From an uncultured virus (IMG/VR IMGVR_UViG_3300027708_002017) (Duplodnaviria > Heunggongvirae > Uroviricota > Caudoviricetes): a DNA stretch of 64,000 bases. Positions 1 through 64,000 of the stretch are shown here, piece by piece. The position numbers and the translations under genes are program-made. The DNA lies in IMG/VR virus record IMGVR_UViG_3300027708_002017, one strand, 5' to 3'. The notes under the pieces are model-generated. The model ran no database searches. It saw only the letters and a program-made list of their open reading frames with translations, and was not told where the DNA came from. The stretch's first letter is position 1. The number at the start of each line of letters is the position of its first letter.

Positions 1-1143
1 TTTAAAAGATATTTTATTATTTTGATCTAGCCACGTATTGTATGTTATTCCTTTTTGGAATAGTTCTTCATCACCTTTAAATTGACTAGCTAAACTGTTT
101 AACTGCCAGCTATTTAAATCTGTGGATCTGTTTAGTATAATATCTTTATAAAAACTTGGCAACACACCGACTGATAAGAACACAGGATCATATACATAAT
201 TCATATGAACATGTAACCCTCTTGCCTGCATAAAATTATGAAATTCATTTACGTAGTATACATTTAGCCAGCTTATAGTTTGACATACACTTGTTTCAAT
301 CCAGGGAAATGATTGAAGTTTATCTAAATTATCAATAACAGTATCCCAGTCGGACCCGGCACGAATGTAATCATTACGTTTGCCTAAGTCATCTATGCTG
401 GCAGTTATTTGTACCTTTTTAAAGCTACTCCATAAATCAATTAACTTGTCTGGCAAGTTAGTCATGTTTATGTTATACCATAGAGTAATTTGTTTGTTTA
501 GACCACGTTTGATTAATTCTTCTAAGTAACGCCAGTGTTTCTCTACTAGTGTAGGCTCACCACCGTTGACATAAATTAGTTCAACATCTTTGCTATGCTC
601 GAACAGGTCATCCCAAAACTCGTCACTTTCGGTCCAGTCACTATTAATCTTTCTATCGTAGTGTGTTACAAATTTTAACTCTTGTTGTAGTTTTTGATAG
701 GGTTGTATCCAGTTTGTACTGCTAGCAGGATTACAGGTTCGGCATTTAAGATTACATAAGTTACCTAGTCGTAGTTCGATAAACTTAAAATTAACGGGTA
801 TAGTGCCATCTTTTTGTGTGATAGCACGAGCCATATCTTCTGTGAACCTTAGTTTGTCGTTTTCTTCTACACGTTTACTTCTAACACCGTTAGCTTCTTC
901 TTGGAAACAACGTTCACACGCCTTAGGTACAATACCGTTGAGCATTTCTAATCTGGTAGCCTTATAATAATCGCTATTCATAATATCACTTATTTTGTGA
1001 TTATTAAGATCAAGATATGTCAAAGGTTGATAATTTTTAGCTCGACTGGCGGCCCCACGATGATCACTTACACAGCATAATGTAGCACCCCCGTCAGGGT
1101 GCGTAGCTAAGTGTATCCAAGGTAAACTGCAATAGGTACTCAT
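1..1143 (-). CDS. Radical SAM enzyme with N-terminal SPASM/Twitch-like domain (3' end beyond window)
   Basis: Not in ORF track. Hand translation from ATG 1143: MSTYCSLPWIHLATHPDGGATLCC...CERC...LGNLCNLKCRTC...NGGEP. Confidence 0.88.
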   Translation of the reverse strand, partial: MSTYCSLPWIHLATHPDGGATLCCVSDHRGAASRAKNYQPLTYLDLNNHKISDIMNSDYYKATRLEMLNGIVPKACERCFQEEANGVRSKRVEENDKLRFTEDMARAITQKDGTIPVNFKFIELRLGNLCNLKCRTCNPASSTNWIQPYQKLQQELKFVTHYDRKINSDWTESDEFWDDLFEHSKDVELIYVNGGEPTLVEKHWRYLEELIKRGLNKQITLWYNINMTNLPDKLIDLWSSFKKVQITASIDDLGKRNDYIRAGSDWDTVIDNLDKLQSFPWIETSVCQTISWLNVYYVNEFHNFMQARGLHVHMNYVYDPVFLSVGVLPSFYKDIILNRSTDLNSWQLNSLASQFKGDEELFQKGITYNTWLDQNNKISFK

Positions 1144-2387
1144 TTAGGTCCTAGTTCCTTAATAAAGATTTCATCCATCCATGGATAAATTCCACGCCAG
1201 TTTTGTTTACGTCTGACATCTAGCTCATCAAGATAGTCTCTAAGTTCTTTCATTTGTTCTTTGTTAACTTCTGAACTTTTAATTTGTACAGCAAACCCTT
1301 CAAGATAATTTACATAAGAGTTATCGAGTCTAGAAGCAGAGTCTACTAACTTATCTGTATATTCTGTTAAGTAGTGGCCAAAGACACTTGGGTCTAAGAA
1401 TGTAGGATGTGCCACCACATTCCAACCTTGTCTAATATGTTTAATTTTATTCCACTCTACAATCTTATCTGTTAGTTTATATGCTGTAGGCAAGGTGATA
1501 GGACTTAATGTAGATTGTACAAACACACTTATTTCTGGAATGCTCAATAAAATATTAAAGTTATCTTCCCAGTTCTTTAAACTCATTCCGTTTCTGGCAT
1601 ACTCTTGTTCTTCGTCCCAGCAATCTATACTACAAACAATTTCAAAGCGACGGATCTTGTTTTGTTTAATCAAGTCAACAATTTTATTCATCTTAACTTC
1701 AAATTGTTGTGTATTATGTTTAAGATTACTAAATACTTTCCAGTTAAGATTTGGGTTGTTATGTGTTTCAAAAAAGTCTAAACATTCTTGAAACTCAGGT
1801 TGGAACATAGGCTCACCGCCTAACACTTGCAAATCATATAAATGATGTGCGTGTTCTTCCATCCATTCCCAAAACTCTCTTTTCCATTGTTCGTATAACG
1901 GTTTAGCACTCCAGTTACCATGCAAATTATATCTTTCACTGATAGGTCCAAACTTTTTAATTTCGTGTTCAATAACACTACTAAACATAGGGCTACAATA
2001 AACACACGATTGGTTGCACAAATTACTAAAATAAATTTCTAAAATTCGAGGTGTAACACGAGTTGCCGTTGGATCCGTTTCTAATTCTGGAGGAACCATA
2101 TCTAAATCGTTAATATAACCTGTACGCTCGCTGACACCACCTGCATCTTCAATTCGCTTACAATAGTTACATTCGTTCTCAGGCCACTCGCCGTTCAACA
2201 TTAATTCTCTATCTCTAATTTTTAATGGGAGATTATGAAAGTCTTTGAAATTTGTTTCATCTAAGTAGCCTCCCATCACCCTGTGGCAACTGCTAGTTGA
2301 TCCTTCGGATAAGAAGATACTACTCCATGCCCATTTATATTGGCATGCGGTTTCCGTTTTAATTGGAAAAACCTTTTGTTTTTTCAT
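1140..2387 (-). CDS. Radical SAM enzyme, N-terminal Twitch-like domain
   Basis: CNQSCVYC (CX3CX2C), LGGEP, N-terminal CxxxW..SCH..CNYC. Confidence 0.9.
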   Translation of the reverse strand: MKKQKVFPIKTETACQYKWAWSSIFLSEGSTSSCHRVMGGYLDETNFKDFHNLPLKIRDRELMLNGEWPENECNYCKRIEDAGGVSERTGYINDLDMVPPELETDPTATRVTPRILEIYFSNLCNQSCVYCSPMFSSVIEHEIKKFGPISERYNLHGNWSAKPLYEQWKREFWEWMEEHAHHLYDLQVLGGEPMFQPEFQECLDFFETHNNPNLNWKVFSNLKHNTQQFEVKMNKIVDLIKQNKIRRFEIVCSIDCWDEEQEYARNGMSLKNWEDNFNILLSIPEISVFVQSTLSPITLPTAYKLTDKIVEWNKIKHIRQGWNVVAHPTFLDPSVFGHYLTEYTDKLVDSASRLDNSYVNYLEGFAVQIKSSEVNKEQMKELRDYLDELDVRRKQNWRGIYPWMDEIFIKELGPK

Positions 2388-3766
2388 AAATTATTCCACC
2401 ACTTAATTAAGTCTTTATTTTGTGAATATATATCTTCTATAGTATACGTGTCTTTACGTATTGTTTCAAGTCGTTTGAGCCAGTTCTTTCCATTCCTAGC
2501 GGCTTTCTTATATTCATTAGGGTATGCTTCTTCGTGTGTCTGGCGAGTTTTCATCGACTCCAATGTGGTAATAAGTGTTTGCTGTTTATTTCCGGCAAGG
2601 GGTTTCATGTAAGATAGTAAGTCATCTATGACTGCATCGAGTATTGGCCTTGGCCATGCCATTGCAGTAAACATAATATCAGCATGAAATGCAAACATAA
2701 TTTTTGTTTCAATACGTACATCTAATTCGCGACTTAGGTCAAACAGTTCTTTAAGACTAAACATACCTGGCCCAGTTATAGTTAAATCTATAATCATCTT
2801 ATCCTTGCCGCCAGGTAGCTCGAGACCTTGTTTAAAGTTTTCTAACCATTCGTTCCATTTAAGCCCTGTACGGATATATTCGCCAATTTGTCCTGCGCCA
2901 TCTATACTAGCACACATCATCCAATCTTTAAACTTAGGCAAGTATTCGTACAAGTTCTTTTTACCAAACTGTACACGACTTAGGTTGCTGTTGTATCGCA
3001 TATAGCATGTTTTAGCAGATCCGTTATTAACCATTTCTTCTAACGCCCACCAATGTATATCATACATTAACGGCTCCCCGCCTACCCAATACATTTCTTC
3101 TACAATGCCACGTTGTATAGCATCTTTAAACTCGGGCTCTACTACAGTGCCTTGGAAATTTTCCATAGCACTTTTAATCTCAGGAATCATAAATGATTGA
3201 TTCTTCGGACTCCATAAACCATTTACTTTCTTTTCTGTTTCCCAACTACTGCTTAACTGTTCACCACACATGCGGCATTTAAAATTGCACAAGTTACTGA
3301 ATCTATAATCAAAGCTAATAGGCTCCATAGTAGTATGACCGGTTTCGTCGGTACTGTCAAATGCCTGCTGTATTTTATCTTTAAACAAGTTACCCGTAAA
3401 CCATTGTCGATATGTGCTAACACTTAGTAAATCTTTATTGCAAACATCACATTGTGGAATTTCTTCTCCACGCATTAACTTAACACGAATGTCGCGCAGG
3501 TACGGGCTATTCCAATGTTCTTTGAGGCTAACTGGATTATAGTCATCTAATGCTGTTTTGCTTTCTGTTACTTTGCCATACTTGCTGTCGTTACTGCTAT
3601 CGATGTATTGCTTTTGGAAACTGTGTTCTTCTCGGCTAGCACAACATAGTCTACGTTCGCTTTGTGGACTGATATAAGTATGGGTCCACGGAGCCATGCA
3701 AAATGTTTTGTTAGGACTGTTTGGGTTTATGCGTCCATGATCCCATATAGGTATGACTTTAGACAT
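2384..3766 (-). CDS. Radical SAM enzyme, N-terminal SPASM/Twitch-like domain
   Basis: CMAPW..LCC..CDVC; CNFKCRMC; VGGEP. Confidence 0.9.
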   Translation of the reverse strand: MSKVIPIWDHGRINPNSPNKTFCMAPWTHTYISPQSERRLCCASREEHSFQKQYIDSSNDSKYGKVTESKTALDDYNPVSLKEHWNSPYLRDIRVKLMRGEEIPQCDVCNKDLLSVSTYRQWFTGNLFKDKIQQAFDSTDETGHTTMEPISFDYRFSNLCNFKCRMCGEQLSSSWETEKKVNGLWSPKNQSFMIPEIKSAMENFQGTVVEPEFKDAIQRGIVEEMYWVGGEPLMYDIHWWALEEMVNNGSAKTCYMRYNSNLSRVQFGKKNLYEYLPKFKDWMMCASIDGAGQIGEYIRTGLKWNEWLENFKQGLELPGGKDKMIIDLTITGPGMFSLKELFDLSRELDVRIETKIMFAFHADIMFTAMAWPRPILDAVIDDLLSYMKPLAGNKQQTLITTLESMKTRQTHEEAYPNEYKKAARNGKNWLKRLETIRKDTYTIEDIYSQNKDLIKWWNNL

Positions 3767-5279
3767 TTTGTCCTAATGAATCGTTTTCGATGTCCCAGCC
3801 ATGTGCTACTTCATCGCTGACATAGCCTGCCTCTGTAGTAGCCGGATCGCCACCTAGTATAACTTCCCCACCAATGAGTTCTATACTATCGATAAAGTCT
3901 ACAAAGTCTTGCGGAAATGTAGTTCTAAAGTTTTTACCACGGCGCTGGTCATACTGCTCGTAGAAACTTCTAAAATCATTATATAGTTTAGGTTGCTCTG
4001 CTGTATTGCGGTGAGGTGTCTTAATGATATCTAAATAATCTATTAGACGATTAATTTGATCTACTTCGCCCATAGTAAGAATAGACTCGGTCCACGAACC
4101 TCTGTTAACTTTTTCACCTTCCGCTAGACGAGCATCTAACCATGTTTGTAGTTTATTCTTATAAAATTGTTTCATGTGATCAGGTAGGATTGCGGCACTT
4201 TGAAAGCTAGGGAAACGCAAAATATTTAAACTCATTGTAGGGCTAGTAGTTTGATGCTTACGTTTAAATGCTAATACATCGTCCATGAACTCTGTAATAC
4301 TAGCAAGACATAAACTGTTAATAGTCATCATCATATGTGCAGACTTTATATTACCCTCAACACATAACCGCTCCATGTTGTTCCACCATGTGGTATATTC
4401 CATGCCGTCACGAATATACTCGCTTTGTGCGCCTATACTTTCATTACTAGTGTAGATTTCCAAATGCGGAATACTGTGGCTCAGTTCAATTAATTTATCT
4501 AATATTTCTTGTTTGGGCACTAGATTACTATTGATGGCGAAACGCATTTTCTTTCCGCGATCGGGATTATTCTTAAACCATTCAAACAGTTTCCAAACAC
4601 TTGGTGCCATTAATGGTTCTCCGCCTGTAATGCGAATTTCTTCCAAACTGTCTGCTAAATCGCTTTCCCACCATTTCCAAAACGCTTGAATGTACGGGTT
4701 GTCGTCTTCATTCTTAGGACTTTCCGCCCATGGAGCAGTATCCATAAAATGTCCACGGCCGTCGCTTACAATATTAATGTATGGTCCGTTCTTTTTAATA
4801 TCACGAACCCAGCTGGTACTAAATGCCGGATTGCAATATGTACAGGCAAAATTGCAAGTGCGTTCAAAGCTAATCTCTAAAGTTTTAAGTGTAACATCAC
4901 TATCCCATGGCATTTCGCTAGATGCTTTAATATCTTCGTCGGAGTAGATATGAGTTTTAAAAACACGGTCACTAACCGCATCTCGACCCATGTCTTCGAC
5001 TTTCCAACAATATTCACATTCGTTAGGACGCTCGCCTTCTAACATCAACTTACGCATTAACTTTTTATGTTTTGTATTATGAATAGCACTAGGGTTAGTT
5101 TCAATTTCTGCAACATCAATTTTATGAGCTGGGGGATGATGGCAACTAGTAGTTTGACCGTGCCCTAACCAAATAGTAGCATTGTACCATTTTGCACCGC
5201 AGTAAGTATCGCTAATTGGATCGATGACCCTTAGTTTAAATTGTCTGTAAGTTTCTTTTTTGCTGTAATCTCTAGCCAT
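3759..5279 (-). CDS. Radical SAM enzyme, N-terminal Twitch-like domain
   Basis: CGAKW..SCHH..CEYC; CNFACTYC; TGGEP. Confidence 0.9.
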   Translation of the reverse strand: MARDYSKKETYRQFKLRVIDPISDTYCGAKWYNATIWLGHGQTTSCHHPPAHKIDVAEIETNPSAIHNTKHKKLMRKLMLEGERPNECEYCWKVEDMGRDAVSDRVFKTHIYSDEDIKASSEMPWDSDVTLKTLEISFERTCNFACTYCNPAFSTSWVRDIKKNGPYINIVSDGRGHFMDTAPWAESPKNEDDNPYIQAFWKWWESDLADSLEEIRITGGEPLMAPSVWKLFEWFKNNPDRGKKMRFAINSNLVPKQEILDKLIELSHSIPHLEIYTSNESIGAQSEYIRDGMEYTTWWNNMERLCVEGNIKSAHMMMTINSLCLASITEFMDDVLAFKRKHQTTSPTMSLNILRFPSFQSAAILPDHMKQFYKNKLQTWLDARLAEGEKVNRGSWTESILTMGEVDQINRLIDYLDIIKTPHRNTAEQPKLYNDFRSFYEQYDQRRGKNFRTTFPQDFVDFIDSIELIGGEVILGGDPATTEAGYVSDEVAHGWDIENDSLGQNV

Positions 5280-6837
5280 TTATTTTCTCGCATTCTGACC
5301 AATATTGGTACATTTCTGGAAACGTCTCCAGAAAGTTTGTTTGTCGCCTACTATCGTATTGTTTGATAAATTGATAAAACTGTCGTCTATTAGTAGTTAG
5401 TTGTTCTTGAGGCATGCCTTCTTTCATCATGGCCAAATTGCGTTTGAGCTTTAATATTTCGTGAGGCTTAAAACCTTCTAGTGTTCGACCATAATCTGCC
5501 GCCTGTTCATTTGCTTCCATAAATGCTACACAATCTTCGACAATTTCAATTAATTCAGGAGTTGCGTTTTTTACATCAAACCAGTTAGGATAGCTTAATA
5601 ATGGTATGTCAAAAAAGATTCTTTGAAAACGTTTTTGCTTGTATTTTTTATGAACTATGCCGTGTGCTTTTTCTTCGTCAGTTGCTTCTGGAGCAATTTC
5701 AAACTCTGTTTGATTGAGCCCGCCAAACTCTTGTCTTAGTTCTAATATAAGCTGTAGATAGCTACGCAAACTAGGTATGCTTAATAAATTAAATGTATTG
5801 ATAAAGCTAACAGTAGTGTAACGTGTTGAGTTTAAAAACTTGCGTATGTTATCTAGCATTAGATTATAGTTTAATCCTGTCCGCATGTACTCTGCTTGTT
5901 CGCCAGTGCCATCGAAACTAACATACAACCAGAAATGTTTAAAGCCCTTGTCCACATACCAATGATTGCCGCTATGCTCGTTAAAGTTATCTTTGTCTTC
6001 ATACGTGCGTATAACTTCAATAGCTTGTACTTTGCTGATAAAACGATCAAATAATTTAGGATCTGGAGGACACATGTTGCTAGTAATACTTAATTCCAGT
6101 TGCCCGTGAGGATTTTCATTCACATAATCTAACACCTTAAATGTGTTTTTATCCATTAGTGGTTCGCCACCTGTCATACGAAATACACGTAGGTTTCGAT
6201 ATATTTCTGGCCACCATTTCCAAAATGCTGTTACATACGGATTGTCTTTATTGGCAGATTCAATGGGCATGTAACCTTTTTGTTTAAGGCTAGTGATGTC
6301 GTTATGCCCGCCATGATCAAATTTATACGGCCCGAATTTTTCTATTTCTTCTTCCCACGTAGTACTGATATGCGGACTACAATACATACATTTGAAATTG
6401 CAAGCACGATTAAAATTAACTTCTACATAACGTGGAGTGATGTTAAAGTCAAATGGTTTACTCATTACTTCATCGTAGTGTGGCTCAGCCCACCATTCAC
6501 TAGACTTGTAATGCCTATCGCTTAGATTCTCTCCTTCGGCATCTTCGACACGCCAGCAATAACTGCAACCTTCGGGCCTTTTGCCTTCGAGCATCTGTTG
6601 TCGTTCCTGCTTCTTAAAGTTAGTGTTGTGTAAAGCACTGGCATTAATTGCAAGTTCCTCTAATGGAATAGGATGTGCAGGTGGATGATAGCAACTTTGT
6701 GTAGTTCCGTTAGTTAAATTAATGCTAACTTGTAACCATTTAGCAAGACACATACTAGGACTTACTGTATTCAGTTTATCCCGCATGTCCTCCGCACGTT
6801 GAAAGTATTCTGTGAATCCGTAATTTTTTCTTACCAT
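5272..6837 (-). CDS. Radical SAM enzyme, N-terminal Twitch-like domain
   Basis: CLAKW..SCYH..CSYC; CNFKCMYC; TGGEP. Start taken at the ATG overlapping the upstream stop (TAATG). Confidence 0.9.
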   Translation of the reverse strand: MVRKNYGFTEYFQRAEDMRDKLNTVSPSMCLAKWLQVSINLTNGTTQSCYHPPAHPIPLEELAINASALHNTNFKKQERQQMLEGKRPEGCSYCWRVEDAEGENLSDRHYKSSEWWAEPHYDEVMSKPFDFNITPRYVEVNFNRACNFKCMYCSPHISTTWEEEIEKFGPYKFDHGGHNDITSLKQKGYMPIESANKDNPYVTAFWKWWPEIYRNLRVFRMTGGEPLMDKNTFKVLDYVNENPHGQLELSITSNMCPPDPKLFDRFISKVQAIEVIRTYEDKDNFNEHSGNHWYVDKGFKHFWLYVSFDGTGEQAEYMRTGLNYNLMLDNIRKFLNSTRYTTVSFINTFNLLSIPSLRSYLQLILELRQEFGGLNQTEFEIAPEATDEEKAHGIVHKKYKQKRFQRIFFDIPLLSYPNWFDVKNATPELIEIVEDCVAFMEANEQAADYGRTLEGFKPHEILKLKRNLAMMKEGMPQEQLTTNRRQFYQFIKQYDSRRQTNFLETFPEMYQYWSECEKING

Positions 6838-7667
6838 TAGGTCCACAAACTTTGTCTAATTTTGATGAGTCGAATCATCATGGCTTCTTCTTCCGCTTCG
6901 TAAGCCTTTTCAATTTTTTGCAGTAACTTGTGAGCCTTGTCGCTAGCTTTTTTAAGCTCAGGATCTTTATCAGCACTAAAACTTAGTCGGCCACCGTTGG
7001 CAACACGACTTGCTTCACATGCCGCAGTCCAACCACTTGCTTCATATGCATCTGGACGATTACGATATGTAACAGTCCACCAAGTGTATAGCTCAATAAT
7101 TTCTTTTGCGGCATTGGCTTGATAAGTTGGTTCAGCTTCAGACTTTTTATCATCATCCAAGAACTCTTCGTTGGTAAGAGTGCTTGCCCATTTTAGATAT
7201 TCTAATCCAGCTTCTGGACAGCGCCATGTGCGTAAGCGCAACCAGCCACTACGATACCAAGGAACATTGAATTTCTTTTGTTCTTCATCGTTCCACATAC
7301 AGTAATGCCATGCTTGTTCTACTTCAACGAAATCCACAAGTTCTTTAAAAAGACAAGGGAGAAACCTATTACCAACGTCACACCAACTGCCAGGTCGGAT
7401 ATCACGAGGGTCGGCAGTAAGAGCATGACTCTTAGAAATGAAACGATTGTTGATGTAATATCTGACATCATTTAATTTATCCATAGGCCAGTTTATAAAA
7501 TTTTGTATTGCATCCAATGCATCTTCCGCCACCCAATAGCGAAAGTTGTGCTTCATCTTGGCAGTGGTACGCCATTCGTCCCATTCTTCACTTGTGGCGG
7601 CACTTAACTTTTTAGTGCCACGCACCCAATCTGCAAATTTACTGCATGACCAATAATTACTTCTCAT
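6837..7667 (-). CDS. Hypothetical Trp-rich phage protein
   Basis: 276-aa ORF coupled to both neighbours; no recognised motif. Confidence 0.75.
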   Translation of the reverse strand: MRSNYWSCSKFADWVRGTKKLSAATSEEWDEWRTTAKMKHNFRYWVAEDALDAIQNFINWPMDKLNDVRYYINNRFISKSHALTADPRDIRPGSWCDVGNRFLPCLFKELVDFVEVEQAWHYCMWNDEEQKKFNVPWYRSGWLRLRTWRCPEAGLEYLKWASTLTNEEFLDDDKKSEAEPTYQANAAKEIIELYTWWTVTYRNRPDAYEASGWTAACEASRVANGGRLSFSADKDPELKKASDKAHKLLQKIEKAYEAEEEAMMIRLIKIRQSLWT

Positions 7668-22251: not shown

Positions 22252-23327
22252 TGTTTAAGTTTTCTCAACTACGTCGAATACATTTGGAAATTACCAACAA
22301 CTGCCAAGCTAGTTGTCCTATGTGCAGTAGGAATATTAACGGCGGAGTAGTTAATCCTCTTATACAAGTTAATAATTGGACTCTAGAAAATTTTAAAAAT
22401 GTTATTAATTCCGAAGTGTTAACGAACCTAGAAGGTATAAACTTTTGTGGAAACTTTGGAGATCCATTATTAAACAACGATTTACTTGAAATGGTGGAAC
22501 ATGTAGTTGCCACTAATCCGTTTGTTTCTATACATATACACACAAATGGTAGTTTAAGAAATACTGCATGGTGGACTAGATTGGCCACAGCCCTTCCCAA
22601 ACGACATGTTGTAGTTTTTGCCATCGACGGATTAAAGGATACCCATAGCGTACATCGCATAGGTACAGATTATGATCAGGTTATTCACAATGCCAGTTCA
22701 TTTATAAAAGCCGGGGGCATTGCAGAGTGGACGTTTATTAGATTTAAACACAATGCACATGAAGTAGAATCTGCTAAAGTATTAGCTTCGGAATTAGGTT
22801 TTAAAAGTTTTGTTATGAAAGACAGTAGCAGATTTGTTGTAGATACAGAATTTCCAGTACTTGACAAACACGGTAATGTTACACATTATCTACAACCAGC
22901 AACTGAAAGTAAAATTGTTTTTCTTAAAAAACAAGATATATTAAATTATAAAAAAATAGCCGAAGACAGTATAATTGATTGCTATGCATTAAAGTACAAA
23001 GAAATCTACATAGATGCGTTTGGTAGATTATTCCCCTGTTGTTGGATAGCTAGTGCGCCTTATAATTACATAGATCTAGAATCGGAAATAGCACATGTCC
23101 GACAGGAAATTTTAAAACAATATCATATGTTGATTGAAGACTTAGGAGGCATTGATAATATCGATACTAAAAATAGGTCTGTAAAAGAAATAGTAGACTC
23201 TGAAGAATATCAAACAGTTTGGGACAAATATTGGCACGAACAAAAACTAATAACTTGTGCTAGGACATGCGGTACTAATAAACTTAGCAAGCCTAGAGAC
23301 CAATTCATCATCAGTGAAGAGCTATGA
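22251..23327 (+). CDS. Radical SAM/SPASM enzyme
   Basis: CQASCPMC, CGNFGDP, C...FPCCW...CARTC. Confidence 0.9.
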   Translation: MFKFSQLRRIHLEITNNCQASCPMCSRNINGGVVNPLIQVNNWTLENFKNVINSEVLTNLEGINFCGNFGDPLLNNDLLEMVEHVVATNPFVSIHIHTNGSLRNTAWWTRLATALPKRHVVVFAIDGLKDTHSVHRIGTDYDQVIHNASSFIKAGGIAEWTFIRFKHNAHEVESAKVLASELGFKSFVMKDSSRFVVDTEFPVLDKHGNVTHYLQPATESKIVFLKKQDILNYKKIAEDSIIDCYALKYKEIYIDAFGRLFPCCWIASAPYNYIDLESEIAHVRQEILKQYHMLIEDLGGIDNIDTKNRSVKEIVDSEEYQTVWDKYWHEQKLITCARTCGTNKLSKPRDQFIISEEL

Positions 23328-24625
23328 AAAATAATTTATGCCCGTTGCCTTGGATACATCTTGCTACACGACCTAACGGTGATGTGCGTGTGTGCTGTAC
23401 TGCCAATGCAAGCGGCGCGGGCGAAGAAGATGACAAAGGTGTTGGGTTAGTTACTGCTAATGGTAAGAACATGAATTTGCAAGATTACTCTCTTGCAGAA
23501 GTATGGAATAGTGAGTATATGAAATCTGTACGATTGCAGATGTTGAATAATCAAATTCCTCCTAGCTGTACTAAATGCTTTGAAGAAGAATCAAAAGGTA
23601 TTGTAAGTAAAAGACAATGGGAAACTATCGTTTGGAATGAACGTTTGGATATGCCTTTGATCATAAACAACACTAGTGCCGACGGCAGTTTGCCTGTTGA
23701 TATTCCATACTTTGATTTACGACTAGGAAATCTTTGCCAGCTCAAATGTATCATGTGCAGTCCGCATGATAGTAGCAGTTGGATCAAAGAATGGAAACTA
23801 CAATATCCTAAATATAAAACTATTGAACTAAGACAAGATCAGCAATGGAACAGTGACTTTGATTATACATGGTATAAAAAAAGTAGTTTTCTTAGCGATA
23901 TGAGATCCCAGGCACATAATATTCGCGAATTGTATTTTGCCGGAGGTGAGCCGTTGTTAATACCTGAACACTATAAAATTTTAGAGTTTATGGTAGAAAC
24001 TGGCGCGGCCAAGTCCTGCGTATTACGTTACAATTCAAACGGATTAGAATTGCCTGAAAACTTATTTGAATTGTGGAATCATTTTAAACAGGTAAAGTTT
24101 AATTTTAGTGTTGATGCTATTGGTATTCGTAATGATTACATACGTTATCCTAGCAAATGGGCCGATGTCGTTGCTAACTTAGAACGACTTGACGACACTC
24201 CTGATAACATTACAGTTAATATTGCCTGTGCTGTCCAATTGTTAAACGTGCTAACTGTGCCAGAGTTTGTACATTGGAAGGAAAGTAAAAATTTTAAAAA
24301 GATTAATCTTCCGCCTTACGGTGCTGGATTAATAGGAACACATTTAGTATATCTGCCAAGTTATTTAAATGTTAAAGTATTGCCACAACATTTAAAAAAT
24401 AAAGTAGCCAGACAGGTGGAATATTTCTGCTCTAGAAAAAGTACAGATGTTGAATTTATGAACAATCCATATGGGTTAAAACGCTGGCAAGGGCTAGTTC
24501 AATATATGATGTCAGAAGATTGGACTAACAAATTACCCATGTTGGAAGATTACTTAACTGTTACCGATGCTCAACGAGGAACAGACTTTAGGAAGATATT
24601 TCCTGAACTAGTAGATCTTTTTTAA
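23324..24625 (+). CDS. Radical SAM enzyme, N-terminal SPASM/Twitch-like domain
   Basis: CPLPW..VCC..CTKC; CQLKCIMC; AGGEP. Confidence 0.9.
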   Translation: MKNNLCPLPWIHLATRPNGDVRVCCTANASGAGEEDDKGVGLVTANGKNMNLQDYSLAEVWNSEYMKSVRLQMLNNQIPPSCTKCFEEESKGIVSKRQWETIVWNERLDMPLIINNTSADGSLPVDIPYFDLRLGNLCQLKCIMCSPHDSSSWIKEWKLQYPKYKTIELRQDQQWNSDFDYTWYKKSSFLSDMRSQAHNIRELYFAGGEPLLIPEHYKILEFMVETGAAKSCVLRYNSNGLELPENLFELWNHFKQVKFNFSVDAIGIRNDYIRYPSKWADVVANLERLDDTPDNITVNIACAVQLLNVLTVPEFVHWKESKNFKKINLPPYGAGLIGTHLVYLPSYLNVKVLPQHLKNKVARQVEYFCSRKSTDVEFMNNPYGLKRWQGLVQYMMSEDWTNKLPMLEDYLTVTDAQRGTDFRKIFPELVDLF

Positions 24626-26178: not shown

Positions 26179-27080
26179 GGTGCTACCTTTGTCAGTGGAA
26201 TGTCTGCCGCGCAGGTACAGAAATTTCTATCGCATCTAACGGGTTCGCTAGGTGCAACGAAGTCGCCTTCGTATATGTTTCCTAGACTACCACCGACTCT
26301 ACAAGTGGCGCGATGTACATCACCGTCCCAATTTATCATTAGGCTTTCTATACCTGCGTTGCAAGTCCAACCATTAAATTTATTTAGATGTAGTTTGATA
26401 ACATCATTAGCATGCTTGAGCCTCGGCATATCAGGCTCTTCTTTCAAAAACATTACTGTATTTTCTGGCACAGTGGAATCCATTTCTTTGAGCCAGTTTA
26501 AATCATTTGTATTGTAGCGCATATCATCAAACAAATCATGATCGCCTTGTGTCCAACGTATACGTCTAACCGTGTTGGGTATCTTTGCTAACAAACATTT
26601 GGCTCGTAATTGTATTACTGCCGGCATATGATCTTGGTGAGCCATAATTTGTGCAATGACTTTTATTTCAGTTATATTATTAATACTTTCAATAGTATTG
26701 AACACACGTTTCCAATCGTATTCTAAATGAACACTAATTACATATTGATCAACAGGTAACCCTGCATAAAATTCATACGGGCGTGTTCCGTTTGTTGTTA
26801 CACTAATCCAACCGATACCCACATGTTTACAATACTTAACTAACTCATCGAACTTAGGATGCACACAAGGTTCGCCTCCAGTAAAACTTAGACGTATAGG
26901 CTTGCCTAATGTTACAAGTTTGTCTACTGCACGTTTAAGAATTTCTACATCGGTATGCGGACTTGAATTGTCATGTATACTAGCAGGGCAGTAACTACAA
27001 TCATAGTTACAGCGTTTACCAAGATTCCATTCGACCTTGATACTGTCTTGGTGCGGCCACCGACTGGTAACTTTAAGCAT
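26175..27080 (-). CDS. Radical SAM enzyme with C-terminal Twitch/SPASM-like domain
   Basis: CNYDCSYC, TGGEP, WTCNAG..TC..LGNI..CDRNFCTC. Confidence 0.9.
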   Translation of the reverse strand: MLKVTSRWPHQDSIKVEWNLGKRCNYDCSYCPASIHDNSSPHTDVEILKRAVDKLVTLGKPIRLSFTGGEPCVHPKFDELVKYCKHVGIGWISVTTNGTRPYEFYAGLPVDQYVISVHLEYDWKRVFNTIESINNITEIKVIAQIMAHQDHMPAVIQLRAKCLLAKIPNTVRRIRWTQGDHDLFDDMRYNTNDLNWLKEMDSTVPENTVMFLKEEPDMPRLKHANDVIKLHLNKFNGWTCNAGIESLMINWDGDVHRATCRVGGSLGNIYEGDFVAPSEPVRCDRNFCTCAADIPLTKVAP

Positions 27081-28326
27081 ACGGCCTAAACTCCGGCGTA
27101 ACATCGAGAAAACTTTGTCCTCTGCTGGCATCTAGTTTGCGATTAAATTCCAAACACTCCTGCCATAAATGCGAACGGTCTACTTTAAGGTAATTAATAA
27201 CGCCGTCAATTTGTTTGTAAGTTATACCTATAAGTATAGGATTTTCTAAAACATATTTAAATCCATGTACTCGACTGCGTATTGCTTGTAGCCTTGTTAT
27301 GGCTTCCAATCGTAAATTCTTTGGCATTGCTTGTACTGACAGCGCAGTCGGATAATTAACCATGTTGGTATAGAATACAACACCTAAGTCGTTTAAAAAA
27401 TATTCTATCATTTTGTCCAGCACCATTACATTGCTAACTTGTACAGCCACTGCGCCAACAATACGACTGATATTAGGAATAGTTTGTATTTGTTTAATGT
27501 TATTGATTAATTCTGCCCAAGATGCGTTACCTCGAACGTATTCATAACTTGCATCAATTCCATCAATACTAACATTAACAGCAACTGACTTAAACTTGGG
27601 CCAGTATTGCCAAATAGTTCTGTTGTTCTTACCTAGCATAGTTAAATTAGTAGCGTACTTGATTTCAATGTTATTACCGTAAGGTGCAAGCATATCGAGT
27701 ATTTTATAATGTGTAGGATCCATCAGAGGTTCACCGCCTGCAAACTCTACTCGTCTAAAGTAAGGCAACAGTTTTTCAAAACTTTCCCACCAGTTATCTG
27801 TGTCTACAAAACTATCTAAGAAAGGTTTGTTTTTAAGATTTAAGTCATTAATCTTTTTTACTAGAAAGTTATCTTCTTTTTGATAATGACTTTCAATCTC
27901 CTGCCAATCATTCCAGCTTGTACTATCCATAGGATTACACATTCGGCATTTAAGGTTGCACAGATTGTTTAATTTGATCTCCATTGTTGGAAGTTCAAAC
28001 GGCATAGTGTAATTTTCACGCATGGTGCTAACAGCATTTGGATAAAGTGTAATGCGTGACTCCGGAATAACATCGGCAATATGACGTTGACGTAAACTTT
28101 CAACACCTTGGTCTTCTAAATTAAAACACGGAGCGCACTCGGGCGGTCTTTCATCAGACAGCACTTGTTTACGTATGCGTTGCATGTTATCGTTATTCCA
28201 AATTTCTTCAAGAGTGCTATCTTGTATAAATCCAATAGGGTGACTACGGCAACATACTTTAACTGCTCCGTCTTCTCTAGTAGCTAGGCCTGTGAAAGGA
28301 TGCATACAAAATGTTTTACTTTGCAT
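27073..28326 (-). CDS. Radical SAM enzyme, N-terminal SPASM/Twitch-like domain
   Basis: Start MQSKTFCMHPF; VCC; CAPC; CNLKCRMC; AGGEP. Confidence 0.9.
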   Translation of the reverse strand: MQSKTFCMHPFTGLATREDGAVKVCCRSHPIGFIQDSTLEEIWNNDNMQRIRKQVLSDERPPECAPCFNLEDQGVESLRQRHIADVIPESRITLYPNAVSTMRENYTMPFELPTMEIKLNNLCNLKCRMCNPMDSTSWNDWQEIESHYQKEDNFLVKKINDLNLKNKPFLDSFVDTDNWWESFEKLLPYFRRVEFAGGEPLMDPTHYKILDMLAPYGNNIEIKYATNLTMLGKNNRTIWQYWPKFKSVAVNVSIDGIDASYEYVRGNASWAELINNIKQIQTIPNISRIVGAVAVQVSNVMVLDKMIEYFLNDLGVVFYTNMVNYPTALSVQAMPKNLRLEAITRLQAIRSRVHGFKYVLENPILIGITYKQIDGVINYLKVDRSHLWQECLEFNRKLDASRGQSFLDVTPEFRPYA

Positions 28327-29002
28327 TGTCAATGCCCCACCGGCGTTCTTTACACCAAAAACAAACTCCGCATGTAGGAACTTCTTGTCCGGGAACATAG
28401 TTACTTTGATCCAACTCTTCAAAGTCGCCCTCACAGCTACGAGTGATGTTAAACAAATCCCATAGATTAAGTTTTTTATATTGTGATACTACATAATCTT
28501 TATGTACAGTTGAATAAGGTTGGCATGCAAATCCTCCTAGATGTTCTCTAATAGGTTGCATTGTAGTACCCTCTATACTTCGATCAATTGGGCCGCCTGT
28601 TACATCTGCTGGATTTAATGTATCACCTGCATAATATGCGGAGACACCTTCTTTAACACAGACGTATTCGGCATAACTACGTGTAATAATTTGATTGCCC
28701 ATCTTAGGGCCGATGTACACTCCTTCTAATTCAGGAGGAATAAAATTTTCATGCCTAACAAATTTTATGTTAGGGAATTTTCTTACAAAATAGTTAAACA
28801 CATCTAAACTGTTATATTTTTGCCAAGGGCGTGTCTTCCACATTCTTACATTGGATATCACATGAATAGTCGTATCTTCTACTAGTGTGCATAGCTGATG
28901 TGTTAATAGAGCACTGTCGCATCCACCGCTTAAACTTATAGCAATGTTTTTCCATGCAGGATCGAACGGGATAGCTACTCCGTCAAAATTATGTAATATC
29001 AC
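28316..29002 (-). CDS. QueC-like PP-loop ATP pyrophosphatase
   Basis: SLSGGCDS PP-loop; TRSC...CGVCFWCKER; start uncertain (GTG 29002). Confidence 0.75.
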   Translation of the reverse strand: MILHNFDGVAIPFDPAWKNIAISLSGGCDSALLTHQLCTLVEDTTIHVISNVRMWKTRPWQKYNSLDVFNYFVRKFPNIKFVRHENFIPPELEGVYIGPKMGNQIITRSYAEYVCVKEGVSAYYAGDTLNPADVTGGPIDRSIEGTTMQPIREHLGGFACQPYSTVHKDYVVSQYKKLNLWDLFNITRSCEGDFEELDQSNYVPGQEVPTCGVCFWCKERRWGIDNAK

Positions 29003-60489: not shown

Positions 60490-60581
60490 TGGTACCAGCG
60501 GAGGGGATCGAACCCTCTCAAGAACGCTAATCTGGCGCTAAAAGGTGTATAAGACCTCTCTGACTTCCAAGTCTCGCTGGC
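60490..60581 (-). tRNA. Atypical tRNA with TAT anticodon (Ile-UAU?)
   Basis: GCCAGCG/CGCTGGT-A-CCA; mini D arm ACT-TGGA-AGT; AGAGGT-CTTATAC-ACCTTT; long variable arm. Confidence 0.75.
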
Positions 60582-62644: not shown

Positions 62645-62729
62645 TGGTGGAGAAAGTAAGATTCGAACCTACTCACCCGAAGGAACAGATTTACAGTCTG
62701 CCGCGCCTCTCCCACTGCGCCGTTTCTCC
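62645..62729 (-). tRNA. tRNA-Tyr(GTA)
   Basis: GCAGA-CTGTAAA-TCTGT, long variable arm, A73. Confidence 0.93.
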
Positions 62730-62737
62730 ATGTCTTA

Positions 62738-62766
62738 ATTATAACACTCTCCCGCTATGCTGTCAA
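62738..62766 (-). promoter_or_regulatory. sigma70-type promoter embedded in hairpin cassette E, upstream of tRNA-Tyr
   Basis: TTGACA-N17-TATAAT. Confidence 0.65.
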
Positions 62767-62794
62767 CCGCTGTGCAGGCGGAGGTGGAGAGTGT

Positions 62795-62855
62795 GTATTA
62801 AAGCACTCTACATGGATGAACCCACTTGCCTTACGGCCTGAGAATGCTTTAATAC
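62795..62855 (-). ncRNA. Stem-enclosed RNA cassette F
   Basis: GTATTAAAGCATTCT / AGAGTGCTTTAATAC (15 bp) around 31 nt. Confidence 0.55.
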
Positions 62856-62966
62856 GCTACGATTTTTCGATCCAGAAGAGGAGTTTCATCCCGTAGGCCG
62901 CCCATTCGCCCATGTTTAGAGTGCAGGCTAGGATCTCGTTTCCTATACACACTTTTTCGAAAGTCT

Positions 62967-63006
62967 AAAAACAAAAAACCCCAGGGTTTTTAATCCTAGG
63001 GTCCTT
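62967..63006 (-). terminator. Intrinsic terminator (attenuator) ahead of the tRNA array
   Basis: GGACCCTAGG-ATTAAAAAC-CCTGGGGTTT followed by TTTGTTTTT. Confidence 0.85.
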
Positions 63007-63028
63007 GGAGTTTGAATGTAAACTGTGT

Positions 63029-63175
63029 TTACAAAATGTCCTCCCGGACCCTGTGATTCTCTGGTGTACGATCATATGATAAACTTCCGCCATTAATCGA
63101 TGACCAAGAACAGGCTATAATGCCTGCCTGCTTGGGCATTGTATTAAACAGCTGATGTCTAAAATTTGATTGCAT
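63029..63175 (-). CDS. Putative leader peptide (48 aa)
   Basis: MQSNFRHQLFNTMPKQAGIIACSWSSINGGSLSYDRTPENHRVREDIL; purine-rich upstream (GAGA); stop sits inside the antiterminator. Confidence 0.6.
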   Translation of the reverse strand: MQSNFRHQLFNTMPKQAGIIACSWSSINGGSLSYDRTPENHRVREDIL

Positions 63176-63233
63176 TTTGTTTCTCGTTTATCTCTTCTTT
63201 AAAATTAGCTAGCATCTTTGCTAACTAGTCTCT

Positions 63234-63262
63234 ATTGTAGCACCTTGCTACCATGTTGTCAA
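63234..63262 (-). promoter_or_regulatory. sigma70-type promoter P2 of the leader/tRNA array
   Basis: TTGACA-N17-TACAAT. Confidence 0.8.
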
Positions 63263-63316
63263 CACTTTTTAAAAAATATTTTGAAAATTTTTCTGGAGCA
63301 CTAACAACATGTCTTT

Positions 63317-63345
63317 ATTGTATGTTTATTTAGTCTCTTTGTCAA
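63317..63345 (-). promoter_or_regulatory. sigma70-type promoter P1 of the leader/tRNA array
   Basis: TTGACA-N17-TACAAT. Confidence 0.8.
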
Positions 63346-63369: not shown

Positions 63370-64000
63370 TTACGACATCCCAAGATCTTTTCTGATTTTT
63401 GTAGCACTGATGTCGGTGATACTGCTGTCAAAAGTTTCTTGTTCAATTCGGTAGCCAACATCTCGACCATATGTTATGTTTACAATGTTAGGCACTATCT
63501 GTATAGTATACTGCCCTTGATACAACATGTCAAGATCTCTTTGAATAAATTTCTTAACTTTTTCAATTTCAAACGGATTGCTTCCTTGCCAGCCTTGACA
63601 ATCGCGGATCATGATACACACTTGACCAGTCTTAGCAATGGCACGATCAAACAATGCTCTGTGGCCATCATGCCATGGCTGCCAACGACCCAGCATCTGC
63701 ACTGTTTCCTTTTGCCAGTCAAACGTCGGACGTCTACGATTGTCAATGATATGTGCGGCAACAAACTCGCCCCACTTTTCTGAGTTTTGTTCAGTGATTC
63801 TAAAATCGTATTCTGCTGGTTCGACAAACATAGCGTTAGTATCCGCATAACGTCCTTCACGGATTGTGTCTACCCAAATAGTCCAATCTGCTTTGAAGTT
63901 GTGGCGCATTTCTGCCAATGGCGCAACAAAGTCACAGATAACATAATCCATATCAGTCATGCTGTCAGCTAGTTCTCGCATACGCAGACTTTGACGAATA
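63370..64000 (-). CDS. Adenylyl-sulfate-kinase-like domain fused to an HIGH-type nucleotidyltransferase (5' end beyond window)
   Basis: Frame open to window edge (IRQSLRMR); VICDFVAP..MFVEP; GRWQPWHDGH; ISATKIR. Confidence 0.75.
   Translation of the reverse strand, partial: IRQSLRMRELADSMTDMDYVICDFVAPLAEMRHNFKADWTIWVDTIREGRYADTNAMFVEPAEYDFRITEQNSEKWGEFVAAHIIDNRRRPTFDWQKETVQMLGRWQPWHDGHRALFDRAIAKTGQVCIMIRDCQGWQGSNPFEIEKVKKFIQRDLDMLYQGQYTIQIVPNIVNITYGRDVGYRIEQETFDSSITDISATKIRKDLGMS

Follow-up and report, generated by a model that had tools for sequence, protein, structure and literature searches.

A candidate leader-peptide attenuator with a reading frame for all 20 amino acids at the head of a phage tRNA array

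The stretch of DNA analysed here (hereafter, the window) comprises 64,000 nt of IMG/VR record IMGVR_UViG_3300027708_002017, an uncultured Caudoviricetes virus; its source is a large phage from lake water. The minus strand of the window carries an array of 29 tRNA genes, which ARAGORN recognizes from 62729 down to 52119, and ahead of this array lies a leader region with a 48-codon open reading frame (ORF), an intrinsic terminator and an antiterminator that shares sequence with both of them. On the basis of sequence comparisons, this leader is probably a ribosome-mediated transcription attenuator that samples every amino acid and gates the RNA and the tRNAs encoded downstream of it.

Anatomy of the leader region

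The leader lies entirely on the minus strand. Ahead of it, a kinase or cytidylyltransferase-like gene ends at 63370 and is followed by two sigma70-type promoters, a distal one at 63317..63345 and a proximal one at 63234..63262. Both read TTGACA-17-TACAAT (an 11/12 match), and the proximal one has a TG preceding its -10 element. The leader transcript begins with a 5' terminal hairpin (63206..63227), which is predicted by folding and shows two-sided changes among relatives, and continues through an A-rich 5' untranslated region (63176..63205) with a weak GAGA motif that resembles a Shine-Dalgarno sequence; such sequences are weak or absent across the genes of the window generally, with none in 24 of 63. 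The leader ORF itself (63029..63175) has 48 codons, encodes all 20 amino acids and ends with a TAA stop codon (63031-63029). Inside it, the stretch at 63059..63109, CTTGGTCATCGATTAAT ... GATCGTACACCAGAG, is conserved at the nucleotide level, down to invariant third codon positions, and is a candidate helix.

The end of the ORF enters the antiterminator. Its outer helix, P1, would pair AGGGUCC (63052-63046, within ORF codons 42-44) with GGACCCU (63004-62998). Nested within P1 are the P2 strands GGAG (63041..63044) and CUCC (63007..63010) and the 7-bp P3 hairpin TGTAAAC-ACA-GTTTACA (63017..63033), which carries the UAA stop. The CCCT of the P1 3' strand also opens the 5' arm of the intrinsic terminator (62967..63001), which consists of CCCTAGG (63001-62995), a 9-nt loop, CCTGGGG (62985-62979) and the T-run TTTTTTGTTTTT (62978-62967). 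The consensus terminator scan allows loops of 3-8 nt only and did not list this terminator because its 9-nt loop exceeds that limit. Past the T-run, a structured RNA of ~200 nt (62767..62966) would be the first product of read-through in the window, and a promoter with a 12/12 match (62738..62766) stands 8 nt ahead of tRNA-Tyr (62645..62729), the first gene of the array. Thus, the tandem sigma70 promoters, the 48-codon ORF, the terminator and the antiterminator that had been noticed in an original prediction from the sequence were all confirmed at the coordinates given above.

No second leader-switch unit of the same kind was found elsewhere in the 64-kb window, and a comparison of the leader DNA with 50,697 phage records gave no match. 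In many relatives, the interval between the two promoters (63263-63316 in the window, minus strand) contains a hairpin, GTTGTA-AAAA-TACAAC; the sequence of the window differs at this place.

Conservation of the frame, the fold and the amino-acid content

Relatives of the leader were collected in three pattern scans of uncultured phage contigs from IMG/VR. The first scan, with a 22-mer from the ORF core, retrieved 51 loci; the second, with an RNA-switch pattern blind to the ORF, produced more than 120 matches, of which 80 loci were fetched; the third relied on a 15-mer upstream of the switch and resulted in 80 fetched loci, about 49 of them true homologues. The first two sets together with the window make up 132 locus records (some contigs occur in both), with 86 unique ORF sequences and 85 unique peptides. 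What has been shown here by computation is the anatomy of the leader and its conservation, selection that keeps the frame open, covariation of both helices and the energy balance between them, retention of all 20 amino acids, and the association with tRNA arrays. Synteny with the upstream kinase-like gene is not conserved: among 80 loci found through that gene, a single one (L013) had the leader.

An alignment of the leaders, as suggested in the original prediction, showed that both the ORF and the position of its stop codon are conserved. An ORF starting with ATG is present in all 132 locus records, with a length of 38-50 codons by scripted starts and 43-50 codons when the ATG nearest 48 codons is taken. 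None of the 86 unique sequences contains an in-frame stop; in the other two frames, the mean number of stops is 2.8 and 4.6, and 2 and 0 of the 86 sequences, respectively, lack them. Among the triplet types that differ from the consensus, there are no stops out of 524 in frame versus 53 out of 879 off-frame, with 31.6 expected in frame (P about 7e-15). All ORF indels in a 37-sequence alignment preserve the frame, either as multiples of three or as +2/+1 pairs that compensate each other. The distance from the start of GGGTCC to the end of the ORF is 20-27 nt (20-24 nt in 85 of 86 sequences), the stop is TAA in 81 cases and TAG in 5, and GGGTCC itself is read in all three frames (50/34/2). An overlapping ORF in the +1 frame (63093-62965) is open in only 2 of 86. 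A sigma70-like site with a score of at least 10/12 is found at positions -150..-20 of the leader ATG in 78 of the 86 unique relatives, 48 of which score 12/12.

The peptide itself shows little sign of constraint. The pN/pS ratio is 0.77 in the core and 1.05 in the tail of the leader, and the entropy at codon positions 1, 2 and 3 is 0.95, 0.82 and 0.99. The synonymous share of differing codon pairs is 0.163 in frame versus 0.158 and 0.131 off-frame; for the small gene next to the leader, taken from 48 of these loci, the shares are 0.211 versus 0.072 and 0.059. Since the frame is kept open but constraint at the peptide level is nearly absent, translation of the leader appears to be selected and its product mostly not. 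The residues that do recur are a Trp at one column (74 of 86 peptides) and a DRTPE motif. Searches of Pfam and PHROGs with the leader peptide (E up to 1) gave no match; in the protein database it is found in 21 clusters produced by gene callers, all of them unnamed or 'hypothetical'. The leader RNA sequence, for its part, appears to be under constraint of its own.

In the window transcript taken to the end of the terminator stem (GGGG), the antiterminator fold has a predicted energy of -26.5 kcal/mol versus -24.9 kcal/mol for the terminator fold. P2, P3 and the inner UCC:GGA of P1 are compatible with the terminator, and CCC(U) is the sole contested segment; with P1 sharing CCC(U) with the terminator arm, the two structures are predicted to be mutually exclusive. 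When the footprint of a ribosome at the stop codon is held unpaired, only the terminator hairpin folds (-10.7 kcal/mol). The antiterminator is the stabler fold in all 86 variants, by a margin of 0.8-6.4 (median 1.9) kcal/mol. The leader transcript folds at -85.9 kcal/mol versus -53.8 +/- 4.5 kcal/mol for its shuffles (z = -7.07), none of 200 shuffles being as good.

The pairings of the switch covary. The outer pair of P1 (the base preceding GGGTCC and the base following GGACCC), whose positions are absent from every search pattern, is A-U in 48, G-C in 32 and G-U in 5 of the 85 unique 3' domains, with no mismatches. In the scan that did not depend on P1, GGGTCC/GGACCC is kept in 45 unique homologues (outer pair A-U in 24, G-C in 20 and G-U in one) and varies in four. 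Two of these, L254 with GGGTTC/GAACCC and L276 with GGGTTCC/GGAACCC, have, respectively, a compensatory change in the P1 core and an extra U-A pair inserted on both strands, whereas L287 has one mismatch and L293 a shorter helix. The P2 pair is GC in 13, AU in 13 and GU in 10 sequences of the 37-sequence alignment, the P3 hairpin shows changes on both sides among relatives, and pairs 7:22 and 8:21 of the 5' hairpin have changed on both sides in 13 and 14 of the 37 sequences. In the 86-sequence alignment, the covariation of the named structure is 0.218 versus 0.140 +/- 0.006 for shuffles (none of 500 reach it), and all slid controls scored lower. Per-pair counts from this alignment understate P1, since MAFFT misregistered the rows with GGGGTCC, and motif-anchored counts were used instead. 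In the terminator stem, U-G is changed to C-G in 32 of 86 sequences and a compensatory exchange of G-C for U-A is seen in L120; the 7-bp stem and the T-run are kept in all relatives examined. The mutually exclusive layout foreseen in the original prediction is borne out by the two computed folds and by the covariation of P1-P3, and the pairing of AGGGTCC with GGACCCT, for which covariation had been singled out as a check, displays it in the outer pair as well as in the core compensations of L254 and L276.

Other parts of the fold are less regular. The helices that RNAalifold predicts inside the ORF are not the same for the 37-sequence and the 86-sequence alignment, and they have few two-sided changes; the conserved stretch at 63059..63109 is possibly a pause or synchronising hairpin. 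No convincing anti-antiterminator was found: the candidate, CCC of codons 13-14 with GGG of P1, has only 3 bp and is not relied on. In Rfam searches, the leader (62967-63230, E up to 1) gave only a chance-level match to RT-6 on the opposite strand (22.1 bits versus a gathering threshold of 46.7), with no covariance-model match to the leader families Trp_leader, His_leader, Leu_leader and Thr_leader or to the T-box. Ten relatives (E up to 0.1) gave the tRNA clan only, plus two chance-level matches to Plastid-ycf2 on the opposite strand. A T-box was rejected as an identity for lack of an Rfam match, and a tmRNA was rejected as well, given that ARAGORN finds none and the 3' end is a terminator.

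It is the relatives that lend significance to the amino-acid content of the leader. A count confirmed that the window peptide includes all 20 kinds of amino acids and 35 kinds of codons in its 48 codons, without a run of any single amino acid. The accompanying caution that 35 distinct codons is near chance for one sequence was right: all 20 amino acids are also present in 8 of the 212 small ATG ORFs of the window, so that the window peptide alone is not beyond chance. Complete peptides, those with all 20 kinds, account for 74 of the 85 unique ones, or for 76 of the 85 if the start nearest 48 codons is taken, with 19 kinds in seven and 18 kinds in two. By comparison, completeness is expected in 4.1% of 48-residue segments cut from window proteins, in 3.4% of peptides drawn from the pooled composition of the leaders, in 2.0% with uniform codons and in 5-7% when the residues of the search pattern are fixed, and it is seen in none of 172 off-frame translations of the leaders. 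When residues are shuffled within alignment columns, 17.6 +/- 3.3 peptides are complete, at most 29 in any of 2000 shuffles, versus 75 of 86 observed. Exactly one Cys is present in 76 of the 86 peptides, at 18 different alignment columns; for single His and single Tyr residues, the number of columns is 9 and 8, respectively. Clustering at 70% identity yields 32 peptide clusters, 23 of which have a complete member. Of the 22 RNA-selected peptides without DRTPE, 16 have the full set and 20 miss no more than one kind; the third scan added 24 new peptides, 20 of them complete. Thus, the content of all 20 amino acids appears to be maintained across divergent relatives, which supports the earlier idea that a ribosome stalled at almost any codon would be sensed.

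At the codon level and by strict wobble, codons of the window leader match 26 of the 27 anticodons in the phage array, all but Val-UAC. Segments of 48 codons drawn at random from window genes match 19.4 +/- 1.9 (P for 26 or more = 3e-4), and the same peptide written with the codon usage of the window matches 23.2 on average (P = 0.05). Coverage in the family averages 24.9 versus 22.7 by synonymous resampling, with 85 of 86 leaders above expectation. Both codon boxes of Ser, Arg and Leu are represented in 86, 78 and 76 of the 86 leaders, respectively, and ATA is found beside ATY in 75. These figures, which ignore kinship and RNA constraints, suggest a codon-level excess that is consistent but modest.

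Downstream genes and a possible mode of action

In 82 of the 90 distinct contexts, there is a tRNA gene downstream on the same strand, at a median distance of 418 nt past the T-run; of the eight contexts without one, seven have less than 560 nt of flank. In 58 of these 82, the interval has no sigma70-like site of at least 10/12 (promoters were scored for the sigma70 type only). Not more than 70 nt past the T-run, mostly at ~12 nt, 59 of the 82 have the start of an ORF of 30 or more codons, which has no promoter of its own; in L013, the gene is located at 5054-5209. Of these 59 ORFs, 51 belong to one family of ~50-residue Lys/Glu-rich proteins (e.g. ...LTKEQLQKLIQDKFERA...) with a clear coding signature. 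In searches of Pfam and PHROGs, one variant of this small gene had no match and three variants had only chance-level matches to PHROGs of unknown function (E 0.03-0.2).

The structured RNA between the terminator and the first tRNA includes, in the window, a hairpin at 62945-62929 with the loop AACGAGA. A hairpin with the invariant loop AACGAGR is present in the downstream intervals of all relatives (L081-L211) on covarying 5-bp stems, such as TAGGG/CCCTG, TAGGA/TCCTA, CAGGA/TCCTG, CCAGT/ACTGG, GAGGT/ACCTC and others. It is followed by a second hairpin whose loop, CACUNUAAACA, resembles boxA of the antitermination sites of rrn and lambda nut. Searches of Rfam gave no family for this downstream RNA.

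The array itself contains an odd gene at 60490-60581 (minus strand), listed by ARAGORN as a 92-nt 'tRNA-Ile' of unusual length with the anticodon TAT at position 31. Its only Rfam match is a weak tRNA-Sec-like one (28.1 bits), and it recurs in many relatives (L092, L093, L108, L124, L127 and L131). In L089, L122 and L125, a tRNA-Arg(TCT) gene lies just upstream of the leader promoter, which places the switch inside the tRNA region and not at its head. The window also encodes at least five radical-SAM-domain proteins, two tryptophan-halogenase-like proteins and two 2OG-Fe(II) oxygenases (1140-6846, 23324-24625 and 27073-28434), a load of modifying enzymes that is unusual for a phage segment, as well as ligases. 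The leader peptide was rejected as a ribosomally synthesized and post-translationally modified peptide precursor for the radical-SAM and halogenase genes: these genes are at least 14 kb away, beyond the array, the peptide is hardly constrained as a protein, and it is the link to the tRNA array that is conserved instead.

Parts of the leader are represented among contigs of four metatranscriptome runs from lakes or fresh water. An RNA-library contig of 151 nt is identical to the window over 63054-63204, and another, of 181 nt, crosses the terminator (62872-63053). Word depths of 140-280 were recorded in one run for short contigs over 62963-63128, versus 10-28 over parts of the tRNA genes. Such assembled contigs carry no information on ends, strand or level, their depth sums over relatives, the libraries may contain DNA and uncovered bins are uninformative; they give a weak hint that the leader is transcribed.

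The following mode of action would connect these observations. A strong sigma70-type promoter would start a leader of ~260 nt, in which the last seven codons and the stop of the 48-codon ORF lie inside the three-part hairpin P1-P2-P3 and the CCC of the P1 3' strand GGACCC also belongs to the terminator's 5' arm. A ribosome that follows the polymerase closely and is at about codon 38 or at the stop would hold the P1 5' strand, the terminator would form and transcription would end. If the ribosome lagged at an earlier codon, or none had loaded, P1 would form first and, as the slightly stabler fold, pre-empt the terminator; read-through would then enter the small gene in most relatives and the structured RNA and tRNA array in all. 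Since all amino acids and almost all tRNA classes of the phage are represented in the ORF, running short of any one charged tRNA should lead to more tRNA transcription. What we infer is that the leader is translated, how the ribosome is placed, in which direction the switch works and to which physiological signal it responds; every comparative test that was run agrees with the translated leader ORF coupled to a terminator and an antiterminator that had originally been predicted. A wider proposal is distinctly more tentative: the leader could be a universal decoding sensor, with the tRNA array (and, in relatives, the small protein) induced when any host tRNA is depleted, uncharged or cut, including by anticodon-nuclease attack, in which case the array might serve as an inducible counter-defence and not as a constitutive aid to codon usage.

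The geometry of the ribosome relative to the switch is compatible with attenuation, although the footprint limits are assumptions and the counts depend on the chosen reach. For a ribosome whose reach extends 12 nt past the first base of the A site, P1 would stay free during stalls at codons 1-37 and be blocked by later stalls or by a ribosome at the stop; at least 19 kinds of amino acids then fall in the sensing part in 69 of the 86 leaders (null 4%). With a reach of 8 nt, at least 19 kinds do so in 79 of the 86 and all 20 in 60 of the 86. The distance from a conserved GAG to P1, which it precedes, is 9 nt in 40 leaders and 11 nt in 15, and the leader stop is 30 nt upstream of the terminator stem.

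Several observations weigh against attenuation as outlined above. With the 12-nt reach, all 20 kinds are in the sensing part in only 17 of the 86 leaders (null 0.3%), and Glu and Val in the window leader are confined to the last ten codons. The Shine-Dalgarno motifs are weak, and the coupling of transcription and translation in the host is an assumption that may not hold. Without ribosomes, the antiterminator wins in all 86 variants, and perhaps the terminator is just leaky. Because the homologues were retrieved with sequence patterns, the invariance of the P1 core in the second set is true by construction, and the sequences are related, so that the counts are not independent events. The DNA identity of the ORF core is 68% versus 53% for the neighbouring gene, which is more than attenuation would need, and GAT, ACA, CCA and GAG, which are the codons conserved best, are nearly invariant at their third positions; this excess conservation points to a further role at the RNA level, which might be that of a pause hairpin, of a binding site for a partner or of a leader RNA acting in trans. 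In 24 of the 82 contexts, a sigma70-like site of at least 10/12 is located between the leader and the tRNA, with a 12/12 site in eight. This holds for the window as well, where, as the original prediction had cautioned, the 12/12 promoter at 62766-62738 bypasses the switch; the window has also lost the small downstream gene, so that the switch can only gate the ~200-nt structured RNA and extra transcription into the array. Finally, the RNA data consist of assembled contigs only.

These points leave room for other explanations, which differ in how much of the evidence they account for. The locus might be chiefly a structured regulatory RNA, either a leader that binds a protein or ligand or a trans-acting small RNA released at the terminator, with the ORF incidental or serving a second purpose. 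The z-score of -7.07, a nucleotide conservation above that of the neighbouring gene and the covarying 5' hairpin all fit such an RNA, as does, more weakly, the word depth of 140-280 over 62963-63128 in one run, and a role of this kind could coexist with attenuation. As the whole explanation it is nevertheless rather unlikely, since both the selection against in-frame stops and the content of all 20 amino acids need translation, there is no Rfam match, and the helices inside the ORF are inconsistent between alignments, with few two-sided changes. Another explanation would take translation for granted and regard the ORF as an ordinary small phage gene with a leaky terminator, whose 48-residue product is functional and whose P1-P3 structure stabilises the 3' end, read-through being constitutive. 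The length and position of the ORF are indeed conserved, the Trp column and DRTPE recur, gene callers called the ORF in 21 protein clusters, and the antiterminator is favoured without any ribosome. However, the leader has nearly no protein-level signature, unlike the neighbouring small gene; its conserved codons are fixed at their third positions too, and GGGTCC is kept even though it is read in three frames. An ordinary gene would also leave the content of all 20 amino acids and the wandering single Cys unexplained, and there is no Pfam or PHROG match, all of which makes it an improbable account.

It is also conceivable that the same parts follow an opposite or different logic, with translation promoting read-through or with a response to polymerase speed or nucleotide pools of the pyrBI type. 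The direction of the switch has been derived from footprint geometry only, and a leader of ~48 codons is close in length to the 44-codon leader of pyrBI. A stop codon 30 nt before the terminator stem means, however, that a terminating ribosome cannot cover the terminator, and a sensor of nucleotide pools needs no complement of all 20 amino acids; we consider this logic very unlikely. Attenuation by a leader ribosome that samples every amino acid thus probably remains the best description of the locus.

Relation to known attenuators

Leader-peptide attenuators are well known from amino-acid operons (trpL, hisL, pheL, leuL, thrL and ilvL) and from pheST (pheM). Like them, the phage element would combine a promoter-proximal short ORF with a terminator and an exclusive antiterminator, the position of the ribosome would pick the fold, and stalling would lead to read-through. 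Unlike them, the phage leader has no codon run for a single amino acid and keeps all amino acids instead, its stop codon is inside the antiterminator hairpin, there is no convincing 1:2 anti-antiterminator, and its targets are tRNAs and a structured RNA, not biosynthetic enzymes; nor does it match any Rfam leader family. Leader attenuation of amino-acid operons is described in parts of the literature represented here by excerpts of PMC1183508 and PMC3082878.

The T-box (RF00230) resembles the phage element as proposed here in that tRNA status is read through the choice between a terminator and an antiterminator, and tRNA or aminoacylation genes are controlled. It differs in that the T-box binds one uncharged tRNA directly and has no ORF, whereas the phage element carries an ORF that appears to be selected. 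In the pyrBI and pyrE attenuators of E. coli, with a leader ORF of ~44 codons, the ribosome translates into the terminator and close coupling results in read-through. There, too, the outcome is set by how tightly the ribosome trails the polymerase; the phage stop, by contrast, is 30 nt ahead of the terminator stem, so that close coupling should terminate transcription.

Leader ORFs can also sense translation inhibition, as in the bmrB-bmrCD attenuator. Others of this type precede the resistance genes vmlR (PMC9226507) and msrD (PMC10314930) and further loci of B. subtilis (PMC13689557). To judge from excerpts of these reports, they share with the proposed phage mechanism that a stalled leader ribosome, and not a shortage of one amino acid, favours the antiterminator, and that the downstream genes relieve trouble in translation. 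The same excerpts indicate that those attenuators answer drug-bound ribosomes at peptide motifs, whereas the phage leader shows no sign of a drug or an arrest motif and is distinguished by its coverage of all amino acids and its tRNA output.

The tRNA arrays of phages are usually viewed as a fixed cargo, which either suits the codon usage or makes up for tRNAs that host defence systems have destroyed. According to excerpts of one report, phage tRNAs can evade retron and other defences (PMC11555353). Full-text literature searches, at the level of listings and abstracts, retrieved no description of leader-peptide control of phage tRNA genes. The class of mechanism is textbook material, whereas a leader complete for all amino acids and its tRNA gene target appear to be undescribed. 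If the phage leader works as an attenuator of this kind, omission of any one amino acid should raise read-through in a cell-free system, and the tRNA cargo would become a feedback-controlled or attack-induced response to decoding trouble for any amino acid. Leader-peptide attenuation would then extend from single amino acids to all of them, and to tRNA genes as its targets.

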